Positions 16,778-44,598 of a stretch of DNA of 64,000 bases are shown here, in pieces. A program made the translations under genes and the position numbers. Source of the stretch: an uncultured Chloroflexia bacterium (GTDB lineage: Bacteria; Chloroflexota; Limnocylindria; Limnocylindrales; CSP1-4); contig CAWGCS010000001.1 of NCBI GenBank assembly GCA_963821235.1, positions 510,751-574,750 on the forward strand, in the 5' to 3' direction. Numbering within the stretch: the first letter of the stretch is position 1; the number at the start of each line of letters is the position of its first letter. The notes below the pieces were generated by a model. The model worked only from the letters and a program-made list of their open reading frames with translations. It was not told the DNA's origin and made no database searches.

Positions 16778-16781
<4 letters not shown>

Positions 16782-26534: not shown

Positions 26535-27209
26535 ATGGAACTCACGTGGTACGGGCGCACCTGCATCCGCCTCAAGGGCCGGGATGCCGTCGTGGTCGCG
26601 GATCCCTACCAGGCGGTCGTCGGGCCGACCGGCCGCGGCATCACCGGCGACATCGTGACCTACAGCCACCCTGACGACGCCCCGCTGCCCAGGGCGAAGG
26701 GGCGGACGACCCGCGACGGGGCGACCCACCTCCCCTCGAGCCTCGACGACGCCTTCGTCCTCGACGGCCCCGGTGAGTACGAGATCAAGCACGTCCTCGT
26801 CAACGGGGTGCGGACCTTCCGCGACGAGAAGCGGGGGGTGGAGCGGGGACGCAACGTGGCGTTCGTGACCGAGCTCGACGGCGTGCACGTGATCCATCTC
26901 GGCGACATCGCCCACACGCTGACCGAGGAGAAGCTCGGCGAGATCGGCAGCGTGGACGTGGCCTGCGTGCCGGTCGGGGGCCAGCTGTCCCCGACCAAGG
27001 CCGCCGCCCTCGTCGCCCAGCTCGACCCGAAGATCGTCGTGCCGATGCCGGTCTGCGATGACGACGCAGCCTGCGACGCGATCCTCGCCAAGTTCTTCCA
27101 CGAGATGGGCACCACGGCGAGCGAGCCGCAGCCGCGCCTCTCCATCACGTCGAGCGGCCTTCCCGAAGAGACGACGACCGTCCTTCTCGAGTCGCGCGGC
27201 AAGGTCTAG
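26535..27209 (+). CDS. MBL-fold metal-dependent hydrolase (UPF0173/UlaG-like)
   Basis: Begins MELTWYGRTCIRL. Has the DIVTYSHPDD and HLGDIAH beta-lactamase-fold motifs. Confidence 0.7.
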   Translation: MELTWYGRTCIRLKGRDAVVVADPYQAVVGPTGRGITGDIVTYSHPDDAPLPRAKGRTTRDGATHLPSSLDDAFVLDGPGEYEIKHVLVNGVRTFRDEKRGVERGRNVAFVTELDGVHVIHLGDIAHTLTEEKLGEIGSVDVACVPVGGQLSPTKAAALVAQLDPKIVVPMPVCDDDAACDAILAKFFHEMGTTASEPQPRLSITSSGLPEETTTVLLESRGKV

Positions 27210-28543
27210 CCGCCGGCGACGATCCGCCCGCCGGCGACGACCACCCGCACGAGGTCCGCGCCGGCCCAGTACGGGATCTGCCCGAGCGTCGGCACGTCCC
27301 AGACGACGAGATCGGCCCGCAGCCCCGGGGCGATGGCTCCCCGGTCGGCCAGGCCCAGGGCCGCTGCGGCGTTGACCGTCGTTGCGGCGAGCGCCTCGGC
27401 GGGGTCCAGGCGAAGGGTCACCACGGCCGAGGCCATCGCCAGGGGCAGGCTCGTCACGGGCGAGGTCCCCGGGTTGAAGTCCGTGCCGAGCGCGACGGGC
27501 ACGCCGGCCCGGATGAGCTCGCGGGCGGGCTCGCGCGCCGCGAGGCCCAGGAACCACGGCACGGTCGGCAGGAGGACCGCGACGACCGGCCTGCCGCCGT
27601 CCGCGACGCGGGCCAGCGCCTCGATCCCCCGCGCTGACGGCGCGCCGAGGTGGTCGACCGAGAGTGCGCCCAGCTCCGCCGCGAGCTCGGCACCGCCGGA
27701 GGGTGACAGCTCGTCTGCGTGGAGCCGGACCGCGAGGCCGAGCTGCCTGGCGGCCAGCAGGATCCGGCGCGACTGCTCGACGGAGAAGACCCCGGTCTCG
27801 CAGAAGACATCGCAGGAACGGGCGATCCCCTGGGCCGCCACGGCCGGGAGCTGCTCCCCGATCACCGCGGCCACGTACGCCTCGGTCGCGGCCGCCGGAT
27901 CGCCCGGGTGGGCCGCCCGGACCTCGGGCGGGACGGCATGGGCGCCGAGGAAGGTCGGGATCACGTCGACGGGGCCACCGGCGGCGAGCCGGCCGGCGAT
28001 GGCCAGCAGGCGCAGCTCCGTCGCGACGTCGAGGCCATAGCCGGACTTCGCCTCGACCGTCGTCGTCCCGGTCCGCAGCATCTGGCCGAGCCAGTGCCGC
28101 CCGCGCTCGTAGAGGGCCGCGTCCGGGGCGGCGCGGGTGGCGCGGACGGTCGAGAGGATGCCGCCGCCGGCGGCGAGGATCTCCAGGTAGGTGGCGCCGC
28201 GGGCCCGCATCGCCACCTCGTCCTCGCGCGATCCGGCGAAGACGAGGTGTGTATGGGGGTCGACGAGGCCGGGCGTGACGGTGGCCCCCGTCGCGTCGAG
28301 GCGCTCGATCCCGGCGGGATCGCGGCCCGCCCCCTCGAGCGCGGCGGCCAGGGCGCCGGCGACCTCGCCGGCCGGCCCGACGGCGACGATGCGGCCGTCG
28401 AGGCAGGCCACCGCCGTCCCCGGCGGGGCGACGGCCGGCTCTGCCTGCCCGGGCCCCCGGCGAAGCCCGCCGCCGAGGGTCGCGACCTCGGCCGCGCCGA
28501 GGACGAGGAGCCCGCGCCGAGCGGCGTCGCCGGCGTGGGCCAT
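27206..28543 (-). CDS. hutI: imidazolonepropionase
   Basis: Amidohydrolase-fold HutI motifs (GLVDPHTHLVFAG, the TTVEAKSGYGLD region, RLHADE, GTDFNPG). Confidence 0.9.
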   Translation of the reverse strand: MAHAGDAARRGLLVLGAAEVATLGGGLRRGPGQAEPAVAPPGTAVACLDGRIVAVGPAGEVAGALAAALEGAGRDPAGIERLDATGATVTPGLVDPHTHLVFAGSREDEVAMRARGATYLEILAAGGGILSTVRATRAAPDAALYERGRHWLGQMLRTGTTTVEAKSGYGLDVATELRLLAIAGRLAAGGPVDVIPTFLGAHAVPPEVRAAHPGDPAAATEAYVAAVIGEQLPAVAAQGIARSCDVFCETGVFSVEQSRRILLAARQLGLAVRLHADELSPSGGAELAAELGALSVDHLGAPSARGIEALARVADGGRPVVAVLLPTVPWFLGLAAREPARELIRAGVPVALGTDFNPGTSPVTSLPLAMASAVVTLRLDPAEALAATTVNAAAALGLADRGAIAPGLRADLVVWDVPTLGQIPYWAGADLVRVVVAGGRIVAGG

Positions 28544-29502
28544 CAGTCGCCGGCCGCCCGCGCCAGGCGGAGCTCGAGGGCCATGAGCGGCGACGCGTCG
28601 CGCAGCCTCAGGAATCGACCGGCCGCCAGGACGCGCTCCGCGGGAGCCGCGTCGGCCGGCGCGCCGGCGTGCTCCGCGACGGCGTCGAGCGCCGCCAGCG
28701 GCGCCAGCCCGATCAGCTCCGACTCGGCGAGCTCGACGCGGTCGGCCTGCGCCTCCGCCCGAACCGTCTCCCAGACCAGCCAGAGCGGGGTACGCCCGAA
28801 GTCCAGGACGTTCATCGAGACCTGGGCGCAGCCGAGCTCGTCGATGAAGAAGCCTTTCGCCTGGATCGCCGGGAGCCCGCCCGACGACTCGCGGATTCGA
28901 TGGGCGATCCGCCTCGCCAGGTCGACGTCGGGCGAGGCGAGGTTGATGTTGTAGGCGATGAGGAAGGGGCGCGCCCCGACGCAGGTCGCCCCTCCCCGCG
29001 GATGGGTGCGCGCCGGCCCGAAGTCGGGCTCGCGGCCGCGGGTGGCGATCTCGGTCCGGAGGCCCTCGTACTGGCCGCGCCGCAGGTCGGCCAGCTTCAC
29101 CCGGTCGGGTCGGGTCGCTGCTGCGGCGTAGAGGTAGATGGGGAGGTCGAAGCGCGCTGCGATGCGCCGGCCGAAGGCCCGCGCGTACCCGACGCACTCC
29201 TCGAGGGTCGTCTCGCCGAGCGGCACGAAGGGGACGACGTCGACGGCCCCGATCCGCGGATGCTCCCCGACCTGCTGCTCCATGTCGATCTCGCGGAGGG
29301 CGACGCCGACGAGCCGCTCCAGGGCGTCCGCGACCGCGTCGCTCTCCCCGGCGACGGTGAAGACGCTGCGGTTGTGGCTGGCATCGCTGGTCCGGTCGAG
29401 GAGCTGGGCGCCGGGCACCGATTCGAGGGCCGTGGCCAGGCGGTCGACGACCTCGGGCCGGCGGCCCTCCGACACGTTGGGGACAGACTCGACGAGCGCC
29501 AC
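28543..29502 (-). CDS. ftcD: glutamate formimidoyltransferase (stand-alone transferase domain of FtcD)
   Basis: N-terminus VESVPNVSEGRR is the hallmark of the formiminotransferase domain. The start overlaps the hutI stop in an ATGA arrangement. Start was set at the GTG (VALVES) to avoid a head-on overlap with the divergent MFS gene start. Confidence 0.8.
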   Translation of the reverse strand: MALVESVPNVSEGRRPEVVDRLATALESVPGAQLLDRTSDASHNRSVFTVAGESDAVADALERLVGVALREIDMEQQVGEHPRIGAVDVVPFVPLGETTLEECVGYARAFGRRIAARFDLPIYLYAAAATRPDRVKLADLRRGQYEGLRTEIATRGREPDFGPARTHPRGGATCVGARPFLIAYNINLASPDVDLARRIAHRIRESSGGLPAIQAKGFFIDELGCAQVSMNVLDFGRTPLWLVWETVRAEAQADRVELAESELIGLAPLAALDAVAEHAGAPADAAPAERVLAAGRFLRLRDASPLMALELRLARAAGD

Positions 29503-29542
29503 CTCGCTATCGTGGCACACCGATCCGGTATCGTGGCCGACC

Positions 29543-30844
29543 ATGCCGGGACCGCCGCCGACGCCCGCCACGAGCCTCGTCCGCCACCCCGACTTCGTGC
29601 GCCTCTGGACGGCCGAGACGATCAGCCAGCTCGGGACGCAGGTCAGCGCGCTCGCCATCCCGTTCGTGGCGATCGACATCCTTGGCGCCTCGACCTTCGA
29701 GGTGGCCCTCCTCAACGTCGTCGACTTTCTGCCCTTCCTCCTCATCGGGTTGCCGGCCGGCGTGTGGGTCGACCGGCTGCGGCGGCGCCCGGTGATGATC
29801 GTCGGGGACCTGGGCCGGGCAGCCGCCCTGGCCACGATCCCGCTGGCCTTCGTGGCCGGCGTCCTGACGGTCGCCCAGCTCTACGTCGTCGGGTTCGTCG
29901 TCGGCACCCTGACGGTCTTCTTCGACGTCGCCTACCAGAGCTACCTCCCCTCGATCGTCGCGCGCGAACAGCTGCAGGAGGGGAACGCCAAGCTCGAGAT
30001 CAGCCGGGCCGGTGCCCAGGTGGTCGGGCCGGGGCTCGCCGGCGTCTTGATCGGGATCGTCCGGGCGCCGTTCGCGGTGGCCCTGGACGCGGCCTCGTTC
30101 GTCGGGTCGGCGCTCTTCCTGTTCCTCATCCGGCGCCCCGAGCCGCCGCCCGAGCCGCGCCACCCGGGCGGGCAGGCCGGGCCGGGGATGCGCCGCGAGA
30201 TCACCGAGGGGCTGCGCTACGTCTTCGGCCACCCGTACCTCAAGAACATCGCCGCCTGCACGGCGATGTCGAACCTCTTCTCCAACGAGGCCGGGGCCGT
30301 GCTCCTCATCTTCGCGATCCGCGAGCTGGGGATGACGGCCGAGACGATCGGCGCCGGCATCTCCATCGGCGCGACGGGGGCGCTCCTGGGGGCCCTGGTG
30401 GCGAACCGGGTCTCGGCGCGCCTGGGCGTGGGGCGGACGATCATCGTCTTCGCCCCGATCGTGGGCCCCGCCCTCCTCCCACTCGCCCTCGCGCCCGTCG
30501 GGACGTCGTCCCTCGTCCTCGTCGCCTTCGTCGCCCTCTTCGGCTTCGTCGGGGGCCTCTCGTCGGTCGTCTACAACGTCGCCCAGGTGAGCCTCCGCCA
30601 GGCGATCACGCCGTCCCGGATGCAGGGCCGGATGAACGCCACGATGCGCTGGTTCGTGTGGGGGACGATCCCCATCGGGGGCCTGCTGGGCGGCGTGCTG
30701 GGCTCGCTGCTCGGCGTGCGGACGGCGATCGTGATCGGGTCGGTCGGGATGACCGCGGCACTCCTGCCCGTCCTCTTCAGCCAGGTCCGCGGGATCCGGG
30801 AGATCCCCGCCCAGGCCGCCGACGAGCCGGCTCTCCGACCCTAG
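29543..30844 (+). CDS. MFS transporter
   Basis: 12-TM topology with an MFS_1-like pattern (GLPAGVWVDRLRRRPVMI). Confidence 0.8.
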   Translation: MPGPPPTPATSLVRHPDFVRLWTAETISQLGTQVSALAIPFVAIDILGASTFEVALLNVVDFLPFLLIGLPAGVWVDRLRRRPVMIVGDLGRAAALATIPLAFVAGVLTVAQLYVVGFVVGTLTVFFDVAYQSYLPSIVAREQLQEGNAKLEISRAGAQVVGPGLAGVLIGIVRAPFAVALDAASFVGSALFLFLIRRPEPPPEPRHPGGQAGPGMRREITEGLRYVFGHPYLKNIAACTAMSNLFSNEAGAVLLIFAIRELGMTAETIGAGISIGATGALLGALVANRVSARLGVGRTIIVFAPIVGPALLPLALAPVGTSSLVLVAFVALFGFVGGLSSVVYNVAQVSLRQAITPSRMQGRMNATMRWFVWGTIPIGGLLGGVLGSLLGVRTAIVIGSVGMTAALLPVLFSQVRGIREIPAQAADEPALRP

Positions 30845-30957
30845 GCGGCTGCCCAGCGAGCCCAACGGAGCGCCGCCCGACGGCTCGTCGTTCGTCCATG
30901 CCGGGCCTGGACGCGAGCCAGTGGGGACGACGGTGGCCGGCCCGCGACCATGCAGCC

Positions 30958-31515
30958 ATGGATGCCGCGTGGACGCACCCCGATCTCTCCCGGGAGGCCG
31001 TCGCCTGGCTCGGCACGACCGGGCCGGACGGGCAGGCAGCGCTCGTCCCCACCTGGTTCGCCTGGGACGGCGAGGCGTTCCTCGTGGCCTCCAAGCCCGG
31101 CGCCCGCAAGGTGCGCAACGTCCTGGCCAACCCGCGGGTCATGGTGGGCGTCGCCGCCGTCGGCACCGGGATGCGGGCCCAGCTCGTGGAGGGCCGGGCG
31201 GAGCTCCTCCAGGCCCCCTCGGCCGAGGCGTTCCGCGGCCTCGACCTGGCGAAGTACGACGCGCTCCTGGCCGCCGACGGCCTGACCTGGGATGGCTACT
31301 TCGCCCGGTACCCGGCGGCGATCCGGATCGTCCCCACCCGCTTCCTGCCGTGGCAGGGGCCCGCGCTGGCACGGGCCGACCTGGCGCCCAAGGCTGGCCG
31401 GAAGGGGATCCGGGCAAGCCTCGCGGAGGCCCTCCGGCGGCTCGACCCGCGACCTGCGGCGAGACCGGTGCCGCGACCGGCGGCGCTCCTGGCCCCGCGG
31501 CCGGCGGCGGCCTAG
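30958..31515 (+). CDS. pyridoxamine 5'-phosphate oxidase family / PPOX-class F420-dependent enzyme
   Basis: Has the PNPOx-like split-barrel N-terminus ([53 protein letters not shown]). Confidence 0.6.
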
Positions 31516-33218
31516 CCTCCGCCCTCCCCCATCGGGATCCGGATCCCGCGCTCGCGAGCGACCTCGTGCGCACGCTCGTAGCCCGCGTCGGCATGGCGGA
31601 TCACGCCCATCCCCGGATCCGTCGTGAGGACCCGCTCCAGCTTCGCCGCCGCCAGGTCCGTCCCGTCAGCCACCACGACCATCCCGGCGTGCTGGCTGTA
31701 CCCGATCCCCACGCCGCCCCCGTGGTGGATGCTCACCCACGTCGCCCCGGCCGCCGTGTTCACGAGAGCGTTGAGGAGCGGCCAGTCGGCCACCGCGTCC
31801 GTCCCATCGGCCATCGCCTCCGTCTCGCGGTTCGGCGAGGCGACCGAGCCCGAGTCCAGGTGGTCGCGACCGATGACGATCGGGGCGCTGACGACCCCCG
31901 AGCGCACCAGCTCGTTGAAGGCGAGGCCGGCCCGCGCCCGCTCGCCATAGCCCAGCCAGCAGATCCGGGCCGGCAGCCCCTGGAACGGCACCCTGGCCTC
32001 GGCCATCTCGATCCAGCGCCGGAGGCCGGCGTCGTCCGGGAAGAGGCGCAGGATCTCCGCGTCGGTCGCCAGGATGTCGGCCGGGTCGCCGGAGAGCGCG
32101 GCCCAGCGGAAGGGGCCTCGCCCCTCGCAGAACTGGGGCCGGATGAAGAGCGGCACGAACCCGGCGAAGTCGAACGCGTTCGCCACCCCCGCCTGCTGGG
32201 CCTGGGCCCGGATGTTGTTGCCGTAGTCGAAGACGACGGCGCCCCGCTCCCCGAAGGCGAGCATCGCCCGGACGTGGGCGGCCATCCCCTCCATCGCCCG
32301 CCGCTGGTAGACGTCCGGCCGGGTGGTCCGCAGGACGAGCGCGTCGGCCAGGGTGATCTCGGGCGGGACGTAGCCGCCGAGGGCGTCGTGGGCCGACGTC
32401 TGGTCCGTGACCGCATCGAAGCGCTCGCCCGACCTCGCCCACGCCGGCGCGATCTCGGCCGCGTTGCCGACGAGGGCGATCGACAGCGGCTCGCCGCGCG
32501 AGGCGGAGTGGCGAGCCATCGCCAGCGCGGCCTCGGGTGAATCGGTGAGATGGTCGACGTAGCCGATCTCGTGCCGGCGGCGGGCCCGCTCCCCGTCGAC
32601 CTCGATGGCGATGCAGACGCCATCGTTCATGGTGACGGCGAGCGGCTGGGCGCCGCCCATCCCACCCAGGCCGGCCGTCAGGACCAGCCGCCCGCGCAGC
32701 GTCCCCCCGAAGTGCTGGCGTGCCAGCTCGGCGAAGGTCTCGAAGGTGCCCTGCAGGATCCCCTGGGTCCCGATGTAGATCCAGGAGCCGGCCGTCATCT
32801 GGCCGTACATCATCAGGCCCTTCCACTCCAGCTCCCGGAAGTGCTCCCAGGTTGCCCAGCGGCCGACGAGGTTCGAGTTGGCGATGAGGACCCGCGGCGC
32901 CCAGGGATGGGTGCGGAAGACGCCGACCGGCTTGCCGGACTGGACGAGCAGCGTCTCGTCGTCGGCGAGGGCGCGCAGCTCGCGGACGATGGCGTCGAAG
33001 GCCGCCCAGGAGCGGACGGCTCGACCCGTGCCGCCGTAGACGACGAGGGCGTCGGGGTTCTCGGCGACCTCGGGGTCGAGGTTGTTCATGAGCATCCGGA
33101 GGACCGCCTCCTGCTGCCAGCCGCGACAGGAGATCTCCGTGCCCCGGGGAGCGCGTACGGGGCGGGCGCCCGGCAGCGGCGGGGCGTCGTGGGCGCCGGG
33201 GGTCGTCGTCATGGCCAC
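31512..33218 (-). CDS. hutU: urocanate hydratase
   Basis: Full-length urocanase with signature regions ([41 protein letters not shown]-binding [12 protein letters not shown]). Confidence 0.95.
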
Positions 33219-33304
33219 AGTGTCGCGCCGCCGAGGTGCGGTGTCACGCCGGCGTGGTGCGGTGTCGCGTCGCCGGGACCCCCCGATCGGCTACCCTCGG
33301 GGCC

Positions 33305-34630
33305 ATGGGAATCCTCGCCGTCCGTCGCTGGGCCGACCTCGACGTCGCGGAGCAGGCCCGCCTCTGCGCCCGCTCGACGGCCGCTGTCTTCGAGCCCGGC
33401 CTGCAGCGCTCGATCGAGGCTCTCTTCGAGGACGTCCGCGCCCGGGGTGACGCCGCCGTCATCGAGGCGACCGAGCGCTTCGACGGCGTCCGGTTCGCCG
33501 CCGAGGACCTCCGAGTCCGGCCCGACGAGCTGGCCGCCGCCCACGAGGCCTGCGACCCGCCGCTCCTGGCGGGGATCCGCGAGGCGATCCGCAACAGCCG
33601 GCTCTTCAACGAGGCCCAGGTCCGGGCGACGGCGAGCGGCTGGCATGAAGAGGTGCGGCCGGGGTTCGTCCTCGGCGAGCAGGTCGCCCCCATCCCCTCC
33701 GCCGGCCTGTACGTCCCGGCCGGCAAGGGCAGCTTCCCGTCCGTCCTGGTCCAGGTCGGGGTGCCGGCGCTCGTGGCCGGCGTGCCCGAGATCGCGGTGC
33801 TCGTGCCGCCCATGCCGGGGACGGGCGCCGTGGACGGCGCCACCCTGGCGACGGCCCGGGAGCTCGGCCTGGCGAACGTCTTCCGGGCGAACGGCCCGGC
33901 CGGGATCGCCGCCCTCACCTTCGGCACGGCGACCCTCCCGCGGGTCCGCAAGATCGTCGGCCCGGGCAGCCCCGCCGTGACCGCCGCGCAGGTGCTGGCC
34001 CAGCGCTTCGGCACGGCGACGAACATGCTCTGCGGCCCGTCCGAGAGCCTCCTCCTCGCCGACGCGACGGCCGATCCGTGGCGCCTCGCCCTGGACCTCG
34101 TCAACGAGGCCGAGCATGGGACGGATTCGGCGGCCCTCGTCATCACCGACGCGCCCGGCCTGGTGGCGTCGCTCGAGGCCGCCGTCGCCGAGCAGGTGGC
34201 CGCGCTTCCGGAGCCGCGCCGCGGCTACGCGAGCGCCGTCCTCGGCGACCTCGGCGGGGTCCTCCTCTTCGACACGATGGACGGCGTCATCGCCTTCGCC
34301 AACGACTACGCGGCGGAGCACGTCCAGGTCGCGACCGCCGACCCGGAGGCGACCCGGCGCCGTCTCCGCTACGCCGGCGAGATCCTGCTCGGCCAGGACA
34401 CGCCGATCGGGGCCAGCAGCTACTCGATCGGGATCCCGGCGACCCTCCCGACCGGCGGCTACGCCCAGCTCAACGGCGGCGTGACGGCCCGCACCTTCCA
34501 GACGACGAGCTCGCTGGCCACGCTGACGCCGGACGCCCTGGCCGGCCTCGCCGGCCCGACGACCGCGCTCGCCGACCACGAGGGTTTCCCGGCCCACGCC
34601 AACGCCTTCCGCGGCCGCGGGCTGGGCTGA
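33305..34630 (+). CDS. histidinol dehydrogenase family protein (HisD paralog)
   Basis: HisD-like motifs are present (AGPSEsLLLADataDp region, NEAEHGTDSAAL, HVQV). Confidence 0.75.
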   Translation: MGILAVRRWADLDVAEQARLCARSTAAVFEPGLQRSIEALFEDVRARGDAAVIEATERFDGVRFAAEDLRVRPDELAAAHEACDPPLLAGIREAIRNSRLFNEAQVRATASGWHEEVRPGFVLGEQVAPIPSAGLYVPAGKGSFPSVLVQVGVPALVAGVPEIAVLVPPMPGTGAVDGATLATARELGLANVFRANGPAGIAALTFGTATLPRVRKIVGPGSPAVTAAQVLAQRFGTATNMLCGPSESLLLADATADPWRLALDLVNEAEHGTDSAALVITDAPGLVASLEAAVAEQVAALPEPRRGYASAVLGDLGGVLLFDTMDGVIAFANDYAAEHVQVATADPEATRRRLRYAGEILLGQDTPIGASSYSIGIPATLPTGGYAQLNGGVTARTFQTTSSLATLTPDALAGLAGPTTALADHEGFPAHANAFRGRGLG

Positions 34631-34633
34631 CCG

Positions 34634-34957
34634 ATGGCGGCGATGGTGACCCCGGACCCCGTCCTCGCGCTTCCCGCCCGGGCGGTCGCCGCGGCCACCG
34701 GAGCCAGCCAGCGCACCGCCCAGCGATGGCGCGCCGGCAGCCGACCCCGCCGACGCACGTACGTAGAGCGGCTGGCCGATCTCGCCGTGGTCGTGGGGAT
34801 CCTCGGCGCGTCGCTGGCCCCGCGGGGGACGGCGGCGTGGCTCACCGCGCCCAACGCCTACCTCGGCTGGGAGCGCCCGGCCGACCTGCTGGCCCGCGGC
34901 GAGACCGAGCGGGTCCGCGGGGCCGCCCTCGCCTACGCCGCGGGCGACGCGACCTGA
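34634..34957 (+). CDS. Xre-like antitoxin of RES-Xre toxin-antitoxin system (DUF2384/MbcA-ParS-like)
   Basis: 107 aa. C-terminal motif GWERPADLLARGETERVRGAALAYAAG is typical of DUF2384 antitoxins. The gene lies immediately upstream of a RES-domain gene. Confidence 0.7.
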   Translation: MAAMVTPDPVLALPARAVAAATGASQRTAQRWRAGSRPRRRTYVERLADLAVVVGILGASLAPRGTAAWLTAPNAYLGWERPADLLARGETERVRGAALAYAAGDAT

Positions 34958-36314: not shown

Positions 36315-36432
36315 GGGCAGAGGGTAGCGCGGCGCCGCGACGGCGCGGGCGCGGTCACGGCGCGGTGGCCACCGCTCCCGGCCGGATCGGGACGCCCGGC
36401 ACTGGCGAATCCGCCGCTCCACGGGCGACGCT

Positions 36433-37134
36433 GTGTCCATGAGCACCGTCGTCGCCACGCCACCGACCCCCCTCGACGCCAGCGAGGATCCCGCATCGGG
36501 CCCGGCCCTGGCCCCGCCGCCCGCCATGTCGAGCCTGGTCCAGGCCCTCAGCGACGCCAGCGTGACCCTCTTCCGCTACGGCAACCGGTACGCGATGGTG
36601 CCGTTCCATCGCGCCGGGCTGGCGGCCTGGCTCGGCACTCCCCTGACCGGCTGGCAGTGCCTGGTCACCACCACGGGCCGCCGCTCCGGCCTGCCGCGCC
36701 ACACGCCGCTGGGCTACATGGTCGCCGACGGCGCGGTGTGGGTCATGGCCGGCTACGGCCCGAAGACGCTGTGGTTCCGGAACCTCCTCGACGAGCCGCG
36801 GACGACGCTCCTGCTCCCCGGCCGGCCGCCGATCGCCACGATCGCCAGCGAGGAGCGCGACCCGAGCGTCCGGGCCCGGATCCTGCCGCCCCTCGTGCGG
36901 TCGATGAAGCTGCCCGGGTCGTTGATCGGGAGCTACCCCCCGGCCACCAGCGACGAGCGGATCCTCGAGCTGGTGGCATGGATTCCCCTCGTCCGCCTCG
37001 AGGCGGCGGACGGAGCGCCGATCGCGGCCGGCCCGGACGATCCCGGTGGGCTGGGCTGGACCTGGCGCCAGGCGCTGGCCGTGGGAGCCACGCTCCTCGG
37101 TTGCCGGGCCCTCTGGCGCGCCGTCCGTCGCTGA
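36433..37134 (+). CDS. deazaflavin (F420H2)-dependent nitroreductase family protein (DDN/DUF385)
   Basis: Core motif TTTGRRSGLPRHTPLGYMVADGAVWVMAGYGPKTLWFRNL matches the DDN split-barrel family. Confidence 0.7.
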   Translation: MSMSTVVATPPTPLDASEDPASGPALAPPPAMSSLVQALSDASVTLFRYGNRYAMVPFHRAGLAAWLGTPLTGWQCLVTTTGRRSGLPRHTPLGYMVADGAVWVMAGYGPKTLWFRNLLDEPRTTLLLPGRPPIATIASEERDPSVRARILPPLVRSMKLPGSLIGSYPPATSDERILELVAWIPLVRLEAADGAPIAAGPDDPGGLGWTWRQALAVGATLLGCRALWRAVRR

Positions 37135-37254
37135 CGGCGGCGGCACCGCGCTCCGTTCGTCACGCCTGACAGTGCGCCGCGGCGCACGGTCAGGCCGGGC
37201 ACGCGCGAGAGCGAACCCGCGAGGCAGCACCGGCGCCCGGAGCCCGCGAGCCGG

Positions 37255-38940
37255 TCAGGCCTCGACGAGGTCGGCCAGCGCGCCGGCGTGGACGAGGTGG
37301 GTGACCGCCGCGATGTCGCCGCCCATCTCGCGGTCGTCGTCGAGGGCCGGCACGACGGCCCGGATCCGGCGGTGGGCCTCCGCCACCCCGGCTCCCGGCG
37401 CCGGCGCCTCGGAGGCGGGGAGGCCGAGGGCGGCCGCCACGGCAGCCCGCCGCAGGTCGAGCGCCTGCGCCCCGACGAGCAGCTCGAGGGCCACGATGCT
37501 CTCCACGCCGTCGAGGACCTGCCGGGCGTGGCGTGCCGCCGTCGCGCCCATCGAGACGTGGTCCTCCTGGTTGGCGGAGGTCGGGATGGAGTCGACGGAC
37601 GACGGGTGGGCCAGGACCTTGTTCTCGGACGCCAGGGCTGCCGCCGTGTACTGCAGGAGCATCATCCCCGAGTTGAGGCCCGGAGCCGGCGCCAGGAAGG
37701 CGGGCAGGCCGCCATTGAGGCGCGCGTCGAGCAGGAGGGCGATGCGCCGCTCGCTGATCGCTCCCAGCTCGGCGAGGGCGAGCTTGGCGAAGTCGAGGGC
37801 CAGCGCGATCGGCTCGCCGTGGAAGTTGCCGCCGGAGATCACGAGCCCGCCGCCGGTCGCGGCCGTCCCCGTGTCGGCGACGCCGCCCTCCGGGAAGACG
37901 AGCGGGTTGTCGGTCGCCGCGTTCATCTCCACGTCGAGGACCCGCCGGAGGTGATCGAGGGCGTCGCGCACGGCGCCGTGGACCTGCGGCACGCAGCGGA
38001 GGGAATACGGGTCCTGGACCTTGTGCGACGAGGCGTGGTGGTGGGCCATGAGCCCGGAATCGCGCAGGACGTGACGCATCTCGGCGGCGACCGCGACCTG
38101 CCCGGGATGCGGACGGGCGAGCTGGTACGCCGCGGCGTAGGCAACGTCGGTCCCGAGGAACGCCTCCAGCGACTGGCCGGCCGCGAGGGACGCCGTGCGG
38201 GCCAGCCGGTCCGCGTCGGCCAGCAGCAGCGCCCCGAAGGCGCTCATGAGCTGGGTCCCGTTGAGGAGCGCCAGCCCCTCCTTCGCCTCGAGGACGAGCG
38301 GCTGCAGGCCCATCTCGCGGAGGGCCAGCAGGGCCGGCATCAGGCGGCCGTCCAGCTCCACCTCGCCCCGGCCGATGAGGGGCAGCGCGAGGTGGGCCAG
38401 CGGCGCCAGGTCTCCCGATGCGCCCACGCTCCCCTGCGCCGGCACGGCCGGGTGGATGCCGAGCTCGAGGAATTGCAGGAGGCGATCGACGATCTCCGGC
38501 CGGCAGCCCGAATGGCCGAGGGCCAGCGTGTTCGCCCGCAGCAGCAGCATGGCCCGCACGACGTCGCGCGGCAGCGGCGGGCCCACGCCGACGGCGTGGC
38601 TGGCCAGGAGGTTCTCCTGGAGGCGGCGCGCGTCGGCGGGCGGGATGAACGTCGTCGCCAGGTCGCCGAACCCGGTCGTGATGCCGTACACGATCTCGCC
38701 CGCCGCGACGAGGCGCTCGACGACGGCCCGAGCCTCGTTCATCCGCGCCCGGGCATGGCGGTCGAGGGAGGCCCGGGCGCCGCCGCGGGCCACCGCCTCG
38801 ACGGCCGCGATCGTCAGGTCGGCGCCCGTCAGCACGACCACGTCGCGCTCCGCGTCCGGCGCGGGAAGACCCGGCTCGAACTGCGGCCCGCTCGCGTGGT
38901 CGACGGGCGGGACGGTCGGCTCAGTCACGCCGCCGAGCAT
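37255..38940 (-). CDS. hutH: histidine ammonia-lyase
   Basis: Carries the ASG triad for the MIO prosthetic group (SVGASGDLAPLAHL) and HAL motifs (GGNFHGEPIALALD, SANQEDHVSMG). Confidence 0.9.
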   Translation of the reverse strand: MLGGVTEPTVPPVDHASGPQFEPGLPAPDAERDVVVLTGADLTIAAVEAVARGGARASLDRHARARMNEARAVVERLVAAGEIVYGITTGFGDLATTFIPPADARRLQENLLASHAVGVGPPLPRDVVRAMLLLRANTLALGHSGCRPEIVDRLLQFLELGIHPAVPAQGSVGASGDLAPLAHLALPLIGRGEVELDGRLMPALLALREMGLQPLVLEAKEGLALLNGTQLMSAFGALLLADADRLARTASLAAGQSLEAFLGTDVAYAAAYQLARPHPGQVAVAAEMRHVLRDSGLMAHHHASSHKVQDPYSLRCVPQVHGAVRDALDHLRRVLDVEMNAATDNPLVFPEGGVADTGTAATGGGLVISGGNFHGEPIALALDFAKLALAELGAISERRIALLLDARLNGGLPAFLAPAPGLNSGMMLLQYTAAALASENKVLAHPSSVDSIPTSANQEDHVSMGATAARHARQVLDGVESIVALELLVGAQALDLRRAAVAAALGLPASEAPAPGAGVAEAHRRIRAVVPALDDDREMGGDIAAVTHLVHAGALADLVEA

Positions 38941-39014
38941 AGCCCCGCGGGACCACGCTCGACCGGACGATCGGCGGGAGGTCGCGCGTCGCCGCCTCGC
39001 GTATCCTCCGGGCA

Positions 39015-39692
39015 ATGCTCGCCTTCATCGACCAGATCGTCATCCCCTTCCTCGGGAACCTCTACGGTGCGGTCGGCTATCTCGGCGTGACGCTCGCCAT
39101 GGCCATCGAATTGGCCATGATCCCCCTCCCGTCGGAGCTGATCCTCCCGTTCGCCGGCTTCCTCATCTCCGACCCGGCGCAGGCGGAGCCGCTCACCGGC
39201 CAGCCGTGGAGCTTCTGGCTCGTCGTCGTGGTGGGGACGATCGGGAACACGCTCGGTTCGCTCATCGCCTACGCCATCGGCGCATACGGCGGGCGGCCGT
39301 TCCTGGAGCGCTACGGCAAGTACCTCCTCATCCGGCAGCACGAGATCGAGATCGCCGACCACTTCTTCGCCCGCTGGGGTGCCCAGACGGCGTTCTTCAG
39401 CCGCCTCCTGCCGATCGTCCGGACCTTCATCAGCTTCCCGGCCGGGGTCGCCCGGATGGACCTCCGGAAGTTCATCGCCTACTCGACCGCCGGTGCCTTC
39501 CTGTGGTCGACCGCCCTCGTCTGGGCCGGCGTCCAGCTCGGCGCGAACTGGGTGGAGATCCGGGAGATGCTGCAGCCGTTCGACCTGGCGATCGCCGTCG
39601 CGGTGGTGGTCGGCCTCGTGGTCCTCCTCTGGCTTCGCCTGGGTCGGCCGATCCCGGGCCGTCGAGGGGCGCCCGGTCCGGGGGCCGAATAG
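39015..39692 (+). CDS. DedA-family membrane protein
   Basis: SNARE_assoc/DedA motifs (LPFAGFLIS, GNTLGSLIAYAIG, FFSRLLPIVRTFISFPAG). Confidence 0.85.
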   Translation: MLAFIDQIVIPFLGNLYGAVGYLGVTLAMAIELAMIPLPSELILPFAGFLISDPAQAEPLTGQPWSFWLVVVVGTIGNTLGSLIAYAIGAYGGRPFLERYGKYLLIRQHEIEIADHFFARWGAQTAFFSRLLPIVRTFISFPAGVARMDLRKFIAYSTAGAFLWSTALVWAGVQLGANWVEIREMLQPFDLAIAVAVVVGLVVLLWLRLGRPIPGRRGAPGPGAE

Positions 39693-39741
39693 CGGCGCCG
39701 CGAGTCGGGGCCTCGACTCCGCGAGCCCGGGGTGACTCCGC

Positions 39742-40431
39742 TCAGGCGCCGGGCGACGGCTCCCAGGGCGCCTGGCCCGGAGCCGCGACGTGCGACGTGT
39801 CGTTGACCGCCAGCACGCGGGCCTCGTCCGGCGACGCGCCGGGCGGCCAGCGCAGGACGGTCAGGTTGGCCTGGCCCTGGGTGAACCGGCGGCGGTACTC
39901 GCCGACCGGGACGCGGATCGCGACGCACAGCAGGATCCGATTGAACGTGCTGTGGGCGACGGCGAGGGCCACCCCGTCGACGCCGGCCCCCGCGGCCGCG
40001 CCTGGGCGGGCGGCGGCCCAGGCCAGGAGGTCGACGAGGAACGAACGGGCCCGGACCGCGACGTCGGCGCCCGATTCGCCGCCCGGGCACGGGGTCGCCC
40101 CAAGATCCCCGAGCCAGCGCGCCCGCAGGGCGGCATCGCGAGCGTCGATCTCCTCGTAGGTGAGGCCCTCCCAGGCGCCGTAGTCCATCTCCATGAGCCG
40201 CCCGTCTGCCTCGACGGGCCGTCCGCGGGCGACGGCCGAGGCCGTCTCCATGGCCCGCCGGAGCGGGCTGCTGACGATCCGGTCGAAGCGCTCGTCGGCG
40301 ATGCGCGCGGCGAGGGCGGCCGCCTGGGCGACGCCCGCGGCCGAGAGGCCGAGGTCGATCCCCTGGCCGAGGTGCTGCTCGGGCTCCGATCGCGCGGTCA
40401 GCCCGTGGCGGGTCAGGACGAGCGTCAGCAT
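39742..40431 (-). CDS. histidine phosphatase family protein (phosphoglycerate-mutase-like)
   Basis: Has the LTRHG catalytic motif (LVLTRHGLTA) and a downstream His (VAHSTFNR). Confidence 0.8.
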   Translation of the reverse strand: MLTLVLTRHGLTARSEPEQHLGQGIDLGLSAAGVAQAAALAARIADERFDRIVSSPLRRAMETASAVARGRPVEADGRLMEMDYGAWEGLTYEEIDARDAALRARWLGDLGATPCPGGESGADVAVRARSFLVDLLAWAAARPGAAAGAGVDGVALAVAHSTFNRILLCVAIRVPVGEYRRRFTQGQANLTVLRWPPGASPDEARVLAVNDTSHVAAPGQAPWEPSPGA

Positions 40432-40515
40432 CGCCGGCCGAGTGTACCGGCCGTTGGTACGATGCCGCCATCCGGCCGGGGAACGTCACCCGAAGCCGGC
40501 AGCCAGGCGAGGACC

Positions 40516-40722
40516 ATGAGCGACCCGACGAGCGCCGCCGCCGACGCGCACGGCGACCACGAGCCCGACGACGCAGGCCACGGCCACGCTGGCCATGACG
40601 AGCACGGCGACCACGCCCAGGCGCTCGGCCCGGTCGACTGGCTCGCCTGGGGGGCCGGCATCCTGGGCGTGGCGGCCGGCCTCGCCGTCGCCTTCTGCCT
40701 CCTCGTCGCGACGAACCTGTAG
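40516..40722 (+). CDS. small His-rich membrane-anchored protein (hypothetical)
   Basis: 68 aa. The N-terminal 35 aa are His/Asp/Glu-rich (HGDHEPDDAGHGHAGHDEHGDH), followed by one TM helix. A plausible RBS (AGGCGAGGA) precedes the ATG. Confidence 0.35.
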   Translation: MSDPTSAAADAHGDHEPDDAGHGHAGHDEHGDHAQALGPVDWLAWGAGILGVAAGLAVAFCLLVATNL

Positions 40723-40727
40723 GACCG

Positions 40728-41252
40728 GTGGCTTCCCCCTTCGGACCCAACGCGAGCGCCGCCGAGCGGCTGCTCGACGCCCTCGATCGCCTGCCGCCCG
40801 GCGCGGTGGTGGCCCTCGCGGCCGCCGGCAGCGAGCTGGGGACGGCCGACGACGACCCGGCGGTGGCCGCCCGGGCCGAGCTGCGCGGTCGCCTCCGCGC
40901 GGTGGCGAAGAGCGCCCGCCGGCTGGAGGCGGTGCGCGCGATCGGCGACGAGGTCGCGGCGTGGGCCTCCAGCGCCTCCCACTGGTTCCCCGCCGGCATC
41001 GCCGGCACCGGGGACAGCACGGCGGAGATCGCGCCGCGAATGGCGGCCGTGCCCGTCGTCCTGGACGCCGCCTATGCGGTGATCCTGGAGGACCTCCTCT
41101 CCGACGACGAGCTGGACCTCCTCCTGGGACCGTGGGAGGAGGTCGTCGGCTCGCCCTTCGACGAGCCCGGGGAAGGCGGCGACGACACGCGGGACGGCTG
41201 GGACGATCGGCTCGACGACGCCCAGCCCCTGCCCGTGGACGACGAGGGCTAG
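40728..41252 (+). CDS. hypothetical acidic protein
   Basis: 174 aa, GTG start, Asp/Glu-rich C-terminus. No recognisable domain, but the codon bias is coding-like. Confidence 0.35.
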   Translation: MASPFGPNASAAERLLDALDRLPPGAVVALAAAGSELGTADDDPAVAARAELRGRLRAVAKSARRLEAVRAIGDEVAAWASSASHWFPAGIAGTGDSTAEIAPRMAAVPVVLDAAYAVILEDLLSDDELDLLLGPWEEVVGSPFDEPGEGGDDTRDGWDDRLDDAQPLPVDDEG

Positions 41253-42955
41253 AAGAGCCCGACGACGTTCCCGTCGGCGTCGATGTCGATCTTCTCGCCG
41301 GCGGGCCGCGAGGGGAGCCCCGGCATCGTCCGCATGTCGCCCGCGAGCGGGTAGATGAAGCCGGCCCCGGCCGCCAGGCGCACGTCGCGGACCGGCAGGC
41401 GGAAGCCCGTCGGGCGACCCTTGAGGGCCGGGTCGTGGGACAGCGAGAGGTGGGTCTTGGCGACGCAGACGGGGAGGTGGCCGAATCCCAGGCCCTCGTA
41501 CTCGGCGAGGGCCTTCGTCGCCGCGGGCGCGAAGTCGACCCCGTCGGCCCCGTAGACGCGGGTCGCGATCATCTCGATCTTCGCCCGCAGCGGCATCTCG
41601 TCGGGGTAGAGGAAGCGGAACGCGCCGCCGTCGGCCGCGGCCGCCTCCCAGACCGCCGCCGCCAGCGCCTCGGCGCCCCTGCCGCCCTCGGCGAAGTTCG
41701 TGGTGACCACCGCGTCGCGGGCGCCGGCGGCGACCGCGATCTCGCGGACGGCCTCGAGCTCGGCCGGCGTGTCGGTCGGGAAGGCGTTCATGGCCACGAC
41801 CACCGGCACGCCGTAGGAGCGGACGATCTCGACCTGTGCCGCCAGGTTGGCGCCGCCGGCCCGGACCGCCTCGACGTTCTCCGTGGTGAGGGCCGGGTCG
41901 AGCGGCTTGCCGGCCACGATCCGGCCCACCCCGCCGTGCATCTTGAGGGCCCGGATGGTGGCCACCACGACGGCGGCGTCGGGGCGCAGCCCCGAGGCCC
42001 GGCACTTGATGTCGAAGAACTTCTCGGCCCCCATGTCGGCCCCGAAGCCGGCCTCCGTGACGACGATGTCGGAGGTGGCCAGGGCGACCCGGTCGGCCAG
42101 GATCGAGCTGTTGCCGTGGGCGATGTTGGCGAAGGGGCCGCAGTGGACGTAGGCCGGGCCGCCCTCGAGCGTCTGGAGGAGGTTGGGCTTGATGGCGTCG
42201 CGGAGGAGGACGGTCATCGCGCCGGCGACGCCGAGGTCCTCGGTCGTGACCGCCTTGCCTTCGCGCGAGGTCGCCACGACGATGCGGCCGAGGCGCGCCC
42301 GCAGGTCCCGCAGGTCCTTCGAGAGGGCCAGGATCGCCATCACCTCGGAGGCGACCGTGATCACCCACTCGGCCTCGCGGGGGACGCCGTTCTCCTTGCC
42401 GCCGAGGCCGATGATCGCCCGCCGGATGGCCCGGTCGCTGATGTCGACGACGCGCGGCCAGCGGATGGAGAAGGGGTCGATCCCGAGGGCGTTGCCGTGA
42501 TGGAGGTGGTTGTCGAGGAAGGCGGACGCCAGGTTGTGGGCGGCGCTGATGGCGTGCACGTCGCCGGTCAGGTGGAGGTTGAAGTCCTCCATCGGGATGA
42601 TCTGGGAGTAGCCGCCCCCGGCGGCGCCGCCCTTGATCCCGAAGACGGGCCCCAGCGACGGCTGGCGGATGGCGACGGCCGCCTTGCGGCCGATCCGGGT
42701 GAGGCCCTGGGCCAGGCCCACGGTGGTCGTCGTCTTGCCCTCGCCCAGGGGCGTCGGGGTGATGGCCGTCACGACGACGTACCTGCCCCGCGGTCGCTCG
42801 CGCTCGACGCGCTCCACCCCGGCGAGGGTCACCTTGGCCTTCGTCGGGCCGTACAGCTCGATCTCGTCGGGCCGCAGGCCGAGGTCGGCGGCCACGTCGC
42901 CGATGGGCCGCGGGGTGACGGAGCGCGCGATCTCGAGATCGGACGGGAACGACAT
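41249..42955 (-). CDS. fhs: formate--tetrahydrofolate ligase
   Basis: Full-length FTHFS with the P-loop region (PTPLGEGKTTTTVGLAQ) and conserved core. Confidence 0.95.
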   Translation of the reverse strand: MSFPSDLEIARSVTPRPIGDVAADLGLRPDEIELYGPTKAKVTLAGVERVERERPRGRYVVVTAITPTPLGEGKTTTTVGLAQGLTRIGRKAAVAIRQPSLGPVFGIKGGAAGGGYSQIIPMEDFNLHLTGDVHAISAAHNLASAFLDNHLHHGNALGIDPFSIRWPRVVDISDRAIRRAIIGLGGKENGVPREAEWVITVASEVMAILALSKDLRDLRARLGRIVVATSREGKAVTTEDLGVAGAMTVLLRDAIKPNLLQTLEGGPAYVHCGPFANIAHGNSSILADRVALATSDIVVTEAGFGADMGAEKFFDIKCRASGLRPDAAVVVATIRALKMHGGVGRIVAGKPLDPALTTENVEAVRAGGANLAAQVEIVRSYGVPVVVAMNAFPTDTPAELEAVREIAVAAGARDAVVTTNFAEGGRGAEALAAAVWEAAAADGGAFRFLYPDEMPLRAKIEMIATRVYGADGVDFAPAATKALAEYEGLGFGHLPVCVAKTHLSLSHDPALKGRPTGFRLPVRDVRLAAGAGFIYPLAGDMRTMPGLPSRPAGEKIDIDADGNVVGLF

Positions 42956-42985
42956 CGGCAGGGCCTCCGCCGCGCTCGTGCGCGG

Positions 42986-43933
42986 CTACGACGTGGGGGT
43001 GGACGGCGGGGGGCTCGAGGTGGGGATCGGCTGGCGGAGCGAGACGGCGCCCGGGGCAGTCAGGCCCTCGGCCTGGTTGCGGGCGGCCCGGACGAGGTGG
43101 GTGAGGAGGATGGCGTTCGTCAGGGGGCCGACGCCGCCCGGCACCGGCGCGATCGCCGCCGCGACCCGAGCCGCGGACTCGAAGTCGACGTCACCCACCA
43201 GGCGGCCATCGACGACGTTGATCCCGACGTCGACGACCACCGCCCCGGGCTTCAGCATCTCGCCGGTGATGAGCCCGGGCCGTCCCGCCGCGACGACCAC
43301 GACGTCCGCCTCCCGGACCTGGGCCGCGAGATCGCGGGTCCGCGAGTGGCAGATGGTCACCGTCGCGTGCTCGCGGAGGAGGAGGAGGGCGGCCGGCTTG
43401 CCGACCACGTTGGAGCGGCCGACGACCACGGCCCGGGCGCCGGCCAGCGGCACGCCCGAGCGGCGCAGGAGCTCCACCGCGGCGTGGGCGGTCGCCGGCA
43501 GGAAGCCGTCGTAGCCGAGGGCCAGGAGCCCCGCGTTGAGCGGGTGGATCCCGTCGATGTCCTTGGCCGGGTCGAGAGTGTCGATCACGACGCGGAGGGG
43601 GATCGTGGCCGGCAGCGGCTGCTGGACGATGATCCCGGCCACGGTCCGCTCGGCGCCGAGGGCCGCGATCTCGCGGCCGAGGGCCTCCGCGGTGCAGTCG
43701 TCGCCCAGCTCCACGAGGCGATCCTGGATGCCGACCAGGCGGCAGCCGTCGAGGATCTTGTGGAGGTAGACGGTGGAGGGGGCGTCGCGACCGACGATGA
43801 CGACGGCCAGCTCCGGCGTGTACGCGTGGCGGGCCTTGAAGGCGGCGACGTCGGCCGCGACCGTGGTGCGAACCTCCGCCGCGACCGGCCCGCCGCGCAG
43901 GAGGCGCGGGCCTTCGTCGTTGAGGAGCGTCAC
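42986..43933 (-). CDS. folD: bifunctional methylenetetrahydrofolate dehydrogenase / methenyltetrahydrofolate cyclohydrolase
   Basis: FolD motifs (VIVGRDAPSTVYLHKI, GRSNVVGKPAALLLL, PVPGGVGPLT). The GTG start overlaps the upstream gene stop in a GTGA arrangement. Confidence 0.9.
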   Translation of the reverse strand: MTLLNDEGPRLLRGGPVAAEVRTTVAADVAAFKARHAYTPELAVVIVGRDAPSTVYLHKILDGCRLVGIQDRLVELGDDCTAEALGREIAALGAERTVAGIIVQQPLPATIPLRVVIDTLDPAKDIDGIHPLNAGLLALGYDGFLPATAHAAVELLRRSGVPLAGARAVVVGRSNVVGKPAALLLLREHATVTICHSRTRDLAAQVREADVVVVAAGRPGLITGEMLKPGAVVVDVGINVVDGRLVGDVDFESAARVAAAIAPVPGGVGPLTNAILLTHLVRAARNQAEGLTAPGAVSLRQPIPTSSPPPSTPTS

Positions 43934-44598
43934 GCGCCGGCCTCGGGCTCGCGGAGCTCGCGACGCTCGACGTGGGCCCGGGTGGCCTCGGCGAGGTCCT
44001 CGATCTCGGCGAGGAGCTCCCCGACCCGGCCGCGCATCCCGTCGGCGAGGCCCTCGTCGCCGAGCGAGGGGAGGTTGACGAGGACGTTCTCGGCGGCCCC
44101 GTGGGCGGAGGCCTCGGCGAGGCGCGAGGCGACGGCGAGGTCGCTGGCGGCGTTGAGGTTGCTGCGCCCCGCCAGCCCCTCCGACGCGCGGACCACGTCG
44201 CGGCACGCCTCGAGGGTCCGCAGGGGGGCCTCCGCGGCGACGCGGGCCGAGGCCCGGATGGCGGCCGCCCGGGCCACCCGCTCCCCGTCCGACTCGCGAG
44301 GCAGCTTGAGCGCGGCGGCGAACGCGGCGTAGGCGTCGGCGTCCTCGTCGGCCAGGGCAAGGAGCCGGGCCGCGAGCTCGCGACCCGCCGCGCCGTGACG
44401 AGCGTGGCTCGCCTCGTGCGCGGCGTACCTGGGGCGGCCCTCGGAGAGCGCCGCGACCATCGCGACGAGCGCGGCGCCGCACGAGGCGGCCACGGCCGAG
44501 GCCGCCCCTCCGCCGGGGCTGGGGGTCGCCGACGCGAGGCTGTCGATGAACCCGTCGAGGGTCATCGACCCGAAACGAGCCGGGGGTGTCTCGGACAT
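43930..44598 (-). CDS. formimidoyltetrahydrofolate cyclodeaminase (stand-alone FtcD cyclodeaminase domain)
   Basis: The N-terminus (TLDGFIDSLASATPSPGGGAASAVAASCGAALVAMVAAL) is the signature of the cyclodeaminase domain. The 839-aa ORF in the track is a 5' extension artefact. Confidence 0.85.
   Translation of the reverse strand: MSETPPARFGSMTLDGFIDSLASATPSPGGGAASAVAASCGAALVAMVAALSEGRPRYAAHEASHARHGAAGRELAARLLALADEDADAYAAFAAALKLPRESDGERVARAAAIRASARVAAEAPLRTLEACRDVVRASEGLAGRSNLNAASDLAVASRLAEASAHGAAENVLVNLPSLGDEGLADGMRGRVGELLAEIEDLAEATRAHVERRELREPEAGA

Follow-up and report, generated by a model that had tools for sequence, protein, structure and literature searches.

How does a bacterium break down histidine when the genes for the task are spread over 17 kb, and when the two activities that handle the formimino group are encoded by separate genes far apart? 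The question is raised by a 64 kb stretch of DNA (positions 510,751 to 574,750 of contig CAWGCS010000001.1; hereafter the window, whose own positions serve as coordinates throughout) from an uncultured member of the Chloroflexota. The original prediction, made from the letters of this DNA, saw seven genes, namely hutH, hutU, hutI, a stand-alone glutamate formimidoyltransferase, a stand-alone formimidoyl-tetrahydrofolate cyclodeaminase, folD and fhs, as one pathway leading from histidine to formate plus ATP. We consider it probable that the region is a histidine-utilisation (hut) locus that uses the folate-dependent branch of the pathway, and that the last three of these genes, which encode an FTCD_C-family protein, a FolD homologue and formate--tetrahydrofolate ligase, constitute a general one-carbon module that the locus feeds.

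The histidine-utilisation genes and their layout

Because the G+C content is about 74% everywhere in the window, genes were chosen by G+C at third codon positions (GC3) and then by family searches, and the Pfam and NCBIfam scan covered essentially all GC3-supported open reading frames (ORFs) of the 64 kb. All seven predicted genes were recovered in place, every one of them on the minus strand:

27206-28543, minus strand: hutI, imidazolonepropionase, 445 aa (TIGR01224, 423 bits, cutoff 298)
28543-29502, minus strand: stand-alone glutamate formimidoyltransferase, 319 aa (TIGR02024, 320 bits, cutoff 221; Pfam FTCD_N and FTCD)
31512-33218, minus strand: hutU, urocanate hydratase, 568 aa (TIGR01228, 936 bits, cutoff 375; all three urocanase Pfam domains)
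37255-38940, minus strand: hutH, histidine ammonia-lyase, 561 aa (TIGR01225, 640 bits, cutoff 539; PF00221, 636 bits)
41249-42955, minus strand: fhs, formate--tetrahydrofolate ligase, 568 aa (PF01268, 843 bits; NF010030, 798 bits, cutoff 652)
42986-43933, minus strand: FolD homologue, 315 aa (both Pfam domains; below every specific NCBIfam FolD cutoff)
43930-44598, minus strand: FTCD_C-family protein, 222 aa, first gene of the folate operon (PF04961, 164 bits)

Together they span 17.4 kb, in agreement with the extent of about 17 kb first given, and 14.4 kb lie between the transferase gene and the FTCD_C gene.

HutH, HutU and HutI all score above the cutoffs of their equivalog models (TIGR01225, TIGR01228 and TIGR01224). 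HutH carries the Ala-Ser-Gly triplet that forms the methylidene-imidazolone cofactor at residue 174 (GSVGASGDL) and, in the SHAVG motif at 114, the Ser-His pair that is characteristic of lyases specific for histidine. The transferase aligns over residues 3-277, its whole transferase domain, with the rat and pig bifunctional formimidoyltransferase-cyclodeaminase, FTCD (218 bits), and keeps the GEHPR motif, whose histidine has reportedly been proposed as the catalytic base (structure 1QD1). Homologues of about 319 aa number in the thousands. The stop codon of the transferase gene overlaps the start codon of hutI by one base (TGATG), an arrangement that points to translational coupling.

Given these assignments, HutH would deaminate histidine to urocanate, HutU would hydrate the urocanate, HutI would open the ring to yield N-formimino-L-glutamate, and the transferase would pass the formimino group to tetrahydrofolate (THF) with release of glutamate. 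Homology is strong for all four of these predicted steps. The part of the proposed pathway that runs from histidine through urocanate, imidazolonepropionate and N-formimino-glutamate to transfer onto THF is thus upheld by the equivalog matches, by the coupling of the transferase gene to hutI and by compact operons in other organisms, which are described below.

The host lineage is Limnocylindria (Chloroflexota); an actinobacterial origin, suggested at first by the 74% GC, was rejected in view of the nearest genomes. The closest matches to HutH, at 63-85% similarity, come from metagenome-assembled genomes (MAGs) labelled Candidatus Limnocylindria, uncultured Chloroflexia or Chloroflexota, and the transferase is 98% identical to a protein of assembly GCA_040960625.1, where the gene order is identical. 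Conservation was followed with a tblastn matrix of window proteins against 84 loci (cited by number where they need to be told apart) and with gene maps, relatives being viewed over ±10 kb around their hut genes. In ten Limnocylindria-type species the order is kept on one strand: FTCD_C-folD-fhs, then variable genes, then hutH, a gene for a GNAT-like protein, hutU, the transferase gene and hutI. Since relatives with protein identity as low as about 55-65% keep this order, the gene set is no chance co-location. The flanks in relatives consist of a VTT/DedA gene divergent from hutH and, beyond hutI, a metallo-beta-lactamase-fold gene, a DUF8575 gene and argS.

In three relatives (L007, L008 and L011) the genes from hutH to hutI form a nearly uninterrupted same-strand array, with the GNAT-like gene directly between hutH and hutU. 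The array in the window is broken up by a RES/Xre pair, two F420-type oxidoreductase-like genes, a transporter of the major facilitator superfamily (MFS) and a HisD-family gene. The dispersal over 17 kb is a lineage-specific loosening, brought about by insertions into an ancestral same-strand array of hutH, the GNAT-like gene, hutU, the transferase gene and hutI. Judged from its gene junctions and interruptions, the window would hold at least four transcription units: hutH; hutU; the transferase gene with hutI; and FTCD_C-folD-fhs.

No arginase-family hutG and no hutF deiminase occur among the GC3-supported ORFs of the window, and both are likewise absent from the gene lists of relatives within ±10 kb of their hut genes; the earlier statement that neither is present holds over this range. 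The same ORFs include no regulator of the HutC, GntR or IclR type, and a tblastn search of the window finds each cluster gene only once.

The separation of transferase and cyclodeaminase, to which the original prediction drew attention, is no peculiarity of this locus. It is instead the bacterial norm. In the hut cluster of Fusobacterium nucleatum (FN1404-FN1407) a separate transferase, FN1407, and a separate cyclodeaminase, FN1405, feed FolD (PMC12288474), and our tblastn scan found at least 16 hut operons with separate genes for the two activities. Compact operons of hutH, hutU, transferase, hutI and cyclodeaminase genes occur in Bacillota, Gemmatimonadota, Nitrospirota, Synergistota and Fusobacteriota, and at other loci; to these genes L046 adds fhs and L078 a lysine-less folD homologue. 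The fused enzyme is the form characterised in mammals.

Two comparisons place the locus among known systems. Mammalian FTCD (PDB 1TT9, 2PFD, 1QD1), to which the FTCD_C protein aligns over residues 12-212 (90 bits), is one fused enzyme, whereas here the two activities would come from two genes that lie 14 kb from each other, and for that reason its octameric channelling architecture is not to be assumed. With the F. nucleatum type of hut system the locus shares HutH, HutU, HutI, a stand-alone transferase, an FTCD_C protein, the feed into THF and the lack of hutG and hutF (here within the scope of the window). It differs in that at least four units extend over 17 kb in place of one operon, in that the FTCD_C gene does not lie beside the transferase gene and hutI but heads an operon with folD and fhs, and in that its host is an uncultured organism of about 74% GC. 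The pathway as such is already known; what is new is a lineage-level instance of it with a loosened layout.

The folate operon and the readings it allows

What happens to the formimino group once it is on THF depends on the right-hand operon. There the FTCD_C stop codon and the GTG start of folD overlap by four bases (GTGA), and fhs has a GGAGG site 9 nt before its ATG. The FTCD_C gene is preceded by a TACAAT box that ends 8 nt short of its ATG, which suggests a leaderless transcript. The next reaction would turn 5-formimino-THF into 5,10-methenyl-THF and ammonia, for which the only candidate in the locus is the FTCD_C protein; there is no second FTCD_C gene in the window, nor within ±10 kb of hutH in 10 relatives. 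The assignment of this protein as a cyclodeaminase rests on context and not on sequence. Its best match among PDB structures is the methenyl-THF cyclohydrolase FchA (7VG4; 109 bits, 37% identity over 196 residues), followed by the rat cyclodeaminase domain (90 bits) and the cyclodeaminase of Thermotoga maritima (59 bits), and in neighbour-joining trees the clade of the window protein lies nearer to FchA and to proteins encoded next to FolD. It may act as a cyclodeaminase, as a methenyl-THF cyclohydrolase or as both.

The FolD homologue bears on this choice. Aligned to solved FolDs, it reads YLHKI where the canonical motif is YxxxK, with isoleucine in the lysine column, and all nine of the nine Limnocylindria relatives have Y[LV]xxI, the residue before the isoleucine being K, R or Q. 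Tyr52, Gln100, Asp125 and the GG motif (PGGVGP) are kept, and Leu101 is replaced by Gln (human numbering). The lysine (human Lys56) is one of seven key residues described as strictly conserved, with a proposed role in the cyclohydrolase reaction (PMC3368264); K56 mutants retain measurable dehydrogenase kinetics (PMC9173628). Lacking it, the FolD homologue is probably mainly a methylene/methenyl-THF dehydrogenase without cyclohydrolase activity. The conversion of methenyl-THF to 10-formyl-THF by FolD is therefore the doubtful part of the proposed pathway, given the isoleucine in place of the lysine and the FchA-like character of the FTCD_C neighbour.

The substitution is not confined to Limnocylindria. 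The nearest 150 representatives of FolD clusters at 50% identity (P0241-P0390) have lysine at this position in 85 cases and I, L, V or Q in about 57, which suggests that lysine-less FolDs are a large subclass, likely dehydrogenase-only, that is automatically annotated as bifunctional. In unrelated bacteria an FTCD_C gene lies directly upstream of the lysine-less folD in two of the four informative cases, with no hut genes in the stretch shown. Neither of the two canonical FolDs, a very small control sample, has such a neighbour.

We infer that methenyl-THF cyclohydrolase activity comes from the FTCD_C protein, as it comes from FchA in Clostridium perfringens and in acetogens. The FolD of C. 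perfringens is reportedly a monofunctional dehydrogenase, with FchA providing the cyclohydrolase. A separate FchA beside FolD and Fhs is on record according to Aluri et al. 2016, as cited in PMC7219735, and fhs-fchA-folD clusters are documented (PMC3584212). With its lysine-less FolD, and with an FTCD_C protein at least as near to FchA as to cyclodeaminases, the right-hand operon resembles the FchA/FolD/Fhs module of C. perfringens, acetogens and syntrophic acetate oxidisers. In the window, too, a gene of the FTCD_C family lies next to a folD homologue and fhs, and the missing YxxxK lysine would fit a dehydrogenase-only FolD. The operon departs from that module in two respects: a Wood-Ljungdahl context is lacking, with metF, acs and coo absent from the window, and the cyclodeaminase step of the locus has no candidate but the FTCD_C protein itself. 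The transferase needs a cyclodeaminase, a lysine-less FolD needs a cyclohydrolase and a single FTCD_C gene is seen; a dual role for its product is thus plausible.

The three genes would then be the general one-carbon module of the cell, fed by the hut genes, and not a dedicated end of histidine breakdown. Fhs is reversible, and the direction in which it runs is not readable from sequence. Since the trio is also probably general in function, formate plus ATP, the endpoint of the original prediction, becomes only one possible fate: the one-carbon unit could leave as formate plus ATP through Fhs, or it could be kept for biosynthesis.

Several observations weigh against this reading of the locus. 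The FTCD_C protein scores 143 bits against the NCBIfam FchA model NF045657, well under the cutoff of 275. Neither neighbour-joining trees nor a search for alignment columns specific to one group tells cyclodeaminases from cyclohydrolases, FchA itself nesting among hut-embedded cyclodeaminases, and the closest relatives of the window protein outside Limnocylindria (L079 and L053) are hut-embedded beside transferase and hutI genes, which favours a plain cyclodeaminase. The other two of the four informative lysine-less FolDs have no FTCD_C neighbour. The window FolD has a lysine one residue before the motif position (R or Q in relatives), and loss of the motif lysine need not abolish cyclohydrolase activity. 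Further, a hutG or hutF, a second FTCD_C gene or a canonical FolD could sit elsewhere in the genome, and the nearness of the folate operon to hutH may reflect inherited synteny only. Some of this would suit the model first proposed, in which the FTCD_C protein is a pure cyclodeaminase, FolD is a normal bifunctional enzyme and all seven genes make up one dedicated pathway to formate plus ATP. That model also accounts for the single FTCD_C gene of the window, given that the transferase needs a cyclodeaminase, and it finds a parallel in L046, where fhs directly follows the hut-embedded cyclodeaminase gene. Counter to this, the YxxxK lysine is missing from FolD in every relative, the solved structure that best matches the FTCD_C protein is that of a cyclohydrolase, the pairing of an FTCD_C gene with a lysine-less FolD recurs in unrelated bacteria with no hut genes in the contig stretches viewed, an FchA-partnered FolD has the precedent cited above, and the direction of Fhs is left open by its sequence. 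We regard the dedicated pathway as rather unlikely.

Alternatively, the trio could be housekeeping only, with an FchA that is a cyclohydrolase and nothing else, unrelated to histidine, while an unseen paralogue or another route handles formimino-THF. Proximity counts for little here, because the whole stretch from argS to dinB is syntenic in the lineage and the closeness of the folate operon to hutH is accordingly weak evidence; moreover, variable unrelated genes lie between the trio and hutH, the trio matches the known fhs-fchA-folD module, and the FTCD_C gene, with a promoter-like TACAAT box to itself, has no motif in common with the hut promoters. Yet none of the 10 relatives has a second FTCD_C gene near hutH, the compact operons of other phyla always pair the transferase with an FTCD_C gene, an organism that retains the transferase needs some route for 5-formimino-THF, and the window protein clusters with the hut-embedded proteins of L079 and L053. 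We therefore consider complete independence from histidine improbable. Another reading would detach the transferase from histidine breakdown and assign it to folate salvage, acting for instance on 5-formyl-THF or N-formylglutamate, with the hut pathway ending at N-formimino-glutamate or using an unseen hydrolase. Some sources do label close homologues 'glutamate formiminotransferase / 5-formyltetrahydrofolate cyclo-ligase'. Against such a role, the transferase gene shares one base with hutI and lies ahead of it in all relatives, the two genes are adjacent in other phyla too, and the FtcD equivalog match lies above its cutoff; we find folate salvage highly implausible. A folate-dependent hut locus that feeds a general one-carbon module remains the reading that we prefer.

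Genes that lie among the hut genes

The interleaved genes were described as unrelated in the original prediction. Two of them, encoding the HisD-like and the GNAT-like protein, are however conserved residents of the hut locus. These two genes carry more novelty than the pathway itself. They are listed here with two of their neighbours:

29543-30844 (start approximate), plus strand: MFS_3/EntS-like transporter, divergent from the transferase gene (PF07690, PF05977)
33305-34630, plus strand: HisD-family dehydrogenase, 441 aa, divergent from hutU (TIGR00069, 341 bits, above cutoff)
34634-35553, plus strand: Xre-family antitoxin and RES-domain toxin pair, between the HisD-like and GNAT-like genes
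35526-36314, minus strand: GNAT-fold acetyltransferase-like protein, 262 aa, between hutH and hutU

Sources name the HisD-like gene histidinol dehydrogenase. Its product belongs to the same fold family as HisD and the sulfopropanediol dehydrogenase HpsN (PF00815; 216 bits to 6AN0) and keeps the catalytic Glu-His pair as well as the C-terminal His ligand. In canonical HisD the zinc ligands are an axial Gln, an equatorial Asp and a pair of His, and the enzyme carries the motif GSAPL (PMC11382572). The hut-linked protein reads NEAEHG, ASSYSIGIPATLPT and GKGSF where the canonical enzyme has SQAEHG, GDY.SGTNH.LPT and GSAPL: the axial Gln of the metal site has become Glu and the equatorial Asp has become Ser, 'IPA' stands in place of 'TNH', and the two His are kept. 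Its GKGSF matches neither the GSAPL of HisD nor the GRY[AS]H of HpsN. This variant site is common to all 120 homologues listed. Copies at 60-72% identity remain in the hut locus, as seen in L001, L003-L005, L095 and L096, and the gene thus resides in a catabolic hut locus and not in a his operon. The label 'histidinol dehydrogenase' is doubtful for this hut-linked variant, judging from these residues. The enzyme may feed the pathway by oxidising histidinol or some other imidazole alcohol.

The GNAT-like protein has no Pfam or NCBIfam match, and its homologues number more than 4500. In their alignment the Cys/His motif PPCAD..FDHR.CDYWE is invariant, and so are four NPF motifs within an otherwise variable insert that is predicted to be disordered. 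In the AlphaFold2 model the core has a pLDDT confidence of about 70-93, and the top Foldseek matches are all GNAT enzymes (E = 2e-6, TM-score about 0.5 on the target); these are generic GNAT matches only. The predicted structure thus assigns the gene product to the GNAT fold. L001 and L003-L014 all carry the gene in the orientation of hutH and hutU, and it sits between these two in every relative examined.

The remaining insertions are of other kinds. An MFS gene lies between hutU and the transferase gene in L001, L005, L009, L011, L012 and L095 as well. At the position of the RES/Xre pair relatives carry other toxin-antitoxin modules, with PemK in L003 and L004.

The observations on the folate operon and on these two genes can be joined into a single proposal, in which one FTCD_C protein would carry out the consecutive cyclodeaminase and methenyl-THF cyclohydrolase reactions alongside a dehydrogenase-only FolD and Fhs, and the hut locus would have recruited the HisD-variant and NPF-containing GNAT enzymes. 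We put this combination forward tentatively, as a possibility that is more likely to fail than to hold in all its parts.

Intergenic sequences, other features and implications

Signals for control of the locus were sought in its intergenic regions. A promoter scan of 26000-45500 gave a sole sigma-70-like site, TTGACA-18-TAGAGT at 45269-45240 on the minus strand. It contains a perfect TCGAAC-N4-GTTCGA palindrome (45248-45263), presumably a LexA box of the Gram-positive type, and lies between dinB (45363-46652, minus strand) and a conserved ORF of 109 codons (44892-45221, minus strand), not upstream of the folate genes. The site was rejected as a promoter of the folate operon and is attributed to the SOS-box gene. 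Weaker copies of the palindrome occur at 45214-45229, 45325-45340 and 50291-50306, and a two-mismatch copy overlaps the start of a lexA-like gene (50284-50991). Terminator-like sites in 26000-45500 are at chance level, and Rfam searches, at gathering as well as permissive thresholds, detected no riboswitch close to the hut genes or the folate genes.

Upstream of the FTCD_C gene lies a GC-rich region of 293 nt (44599-44891, minus strand) with a folding energy of -176 kcal/mol (z = -5.0 against shuffled sequences) and no Rfam match. We do not read it as a regulatory leader, since the FTCD_C transcript probably begins downstream of it, at a leaderless start; the region may instead belong to the 3' end of the SOS gene that precedes it. 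Direct repeats occur in two intergenic regions. Between the transferase and MFS genes (29503-29542) the perfect repeat GCCACGATA is present twice at a 21-nt spacing, and it recurs before the transferase gene in L005. Between hutU and the HisD-like gene (33219-33304) the perfect repeat GGTGCGGTGTC is present twice, also at a 21-nt spacing, with no recurrence in L005. Both are candidate operator sites. A shared hut operator was rejected, since the repeats of the two regions differ in sequence. A tRNA-Gly(ccc) of 94 nt that ARAGORN places inside hutH (38707-38800, minus strand) is probably spurious, being without Rfam support.

Elsewhere the window contains the following features:

14507-17689, plus strand: tdh (L-threonine 3-dehydrogenase), kbl (glycine C-acetyltransferase) and an overlapping PHP-domain HisJ-family histidinol-phosphatase (TIGR01856, 129 bits, cutoff 90)
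19431-20639, plus strand: IS110-family transposase, between an extracytoplasmic-function (ECF) sigma/anti-sigma pair and a metallo-beta-lactamase-fold gene
51073-53775, plus strand: DnaB replicative helicase, split by an intein with a LAGLIDADG homing-endonuclease domain
59145-59228, plus strand: c-di-GMP-II riboswitch (RF01786, 63.5 bits, gathering threshold 53.5)

The class I/II aminotransferase at 15564-16781 was considered as hisC and rejected; it is kbl, paired with tdh. The ECF sigma/anti-sigma pair directly follows the tdh, kbl and HisJ genes. The riboswitch lies about 700 nt upstream of a gene of the HD-domain, NosR-like c-di-GMP phosphodiesterase type (59933-61057).

For the pathway itself, these results leave the established view unchanged. 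They do bear on how such genomes are annotated. A large share of FolD homologues are lysine-less and often have an FTCD_C gene as neighbour, so automated pathway maps may credit the cyclohydrolase step to the wrong protein, and the labels 'FolD' and 'formimino-THF cyclodeaminase' in such genomes should not be trusted as they stand. For the organisms, the locus indicates that an abundant uncultured class of soil and freshwater Chloroflexota probably degrades histidine by a folate-coupled route. Such a route ties the release of amino-acid nitrogen to one-carbon supply, a connection that is useful for metabolic reconstruction from MAGs.

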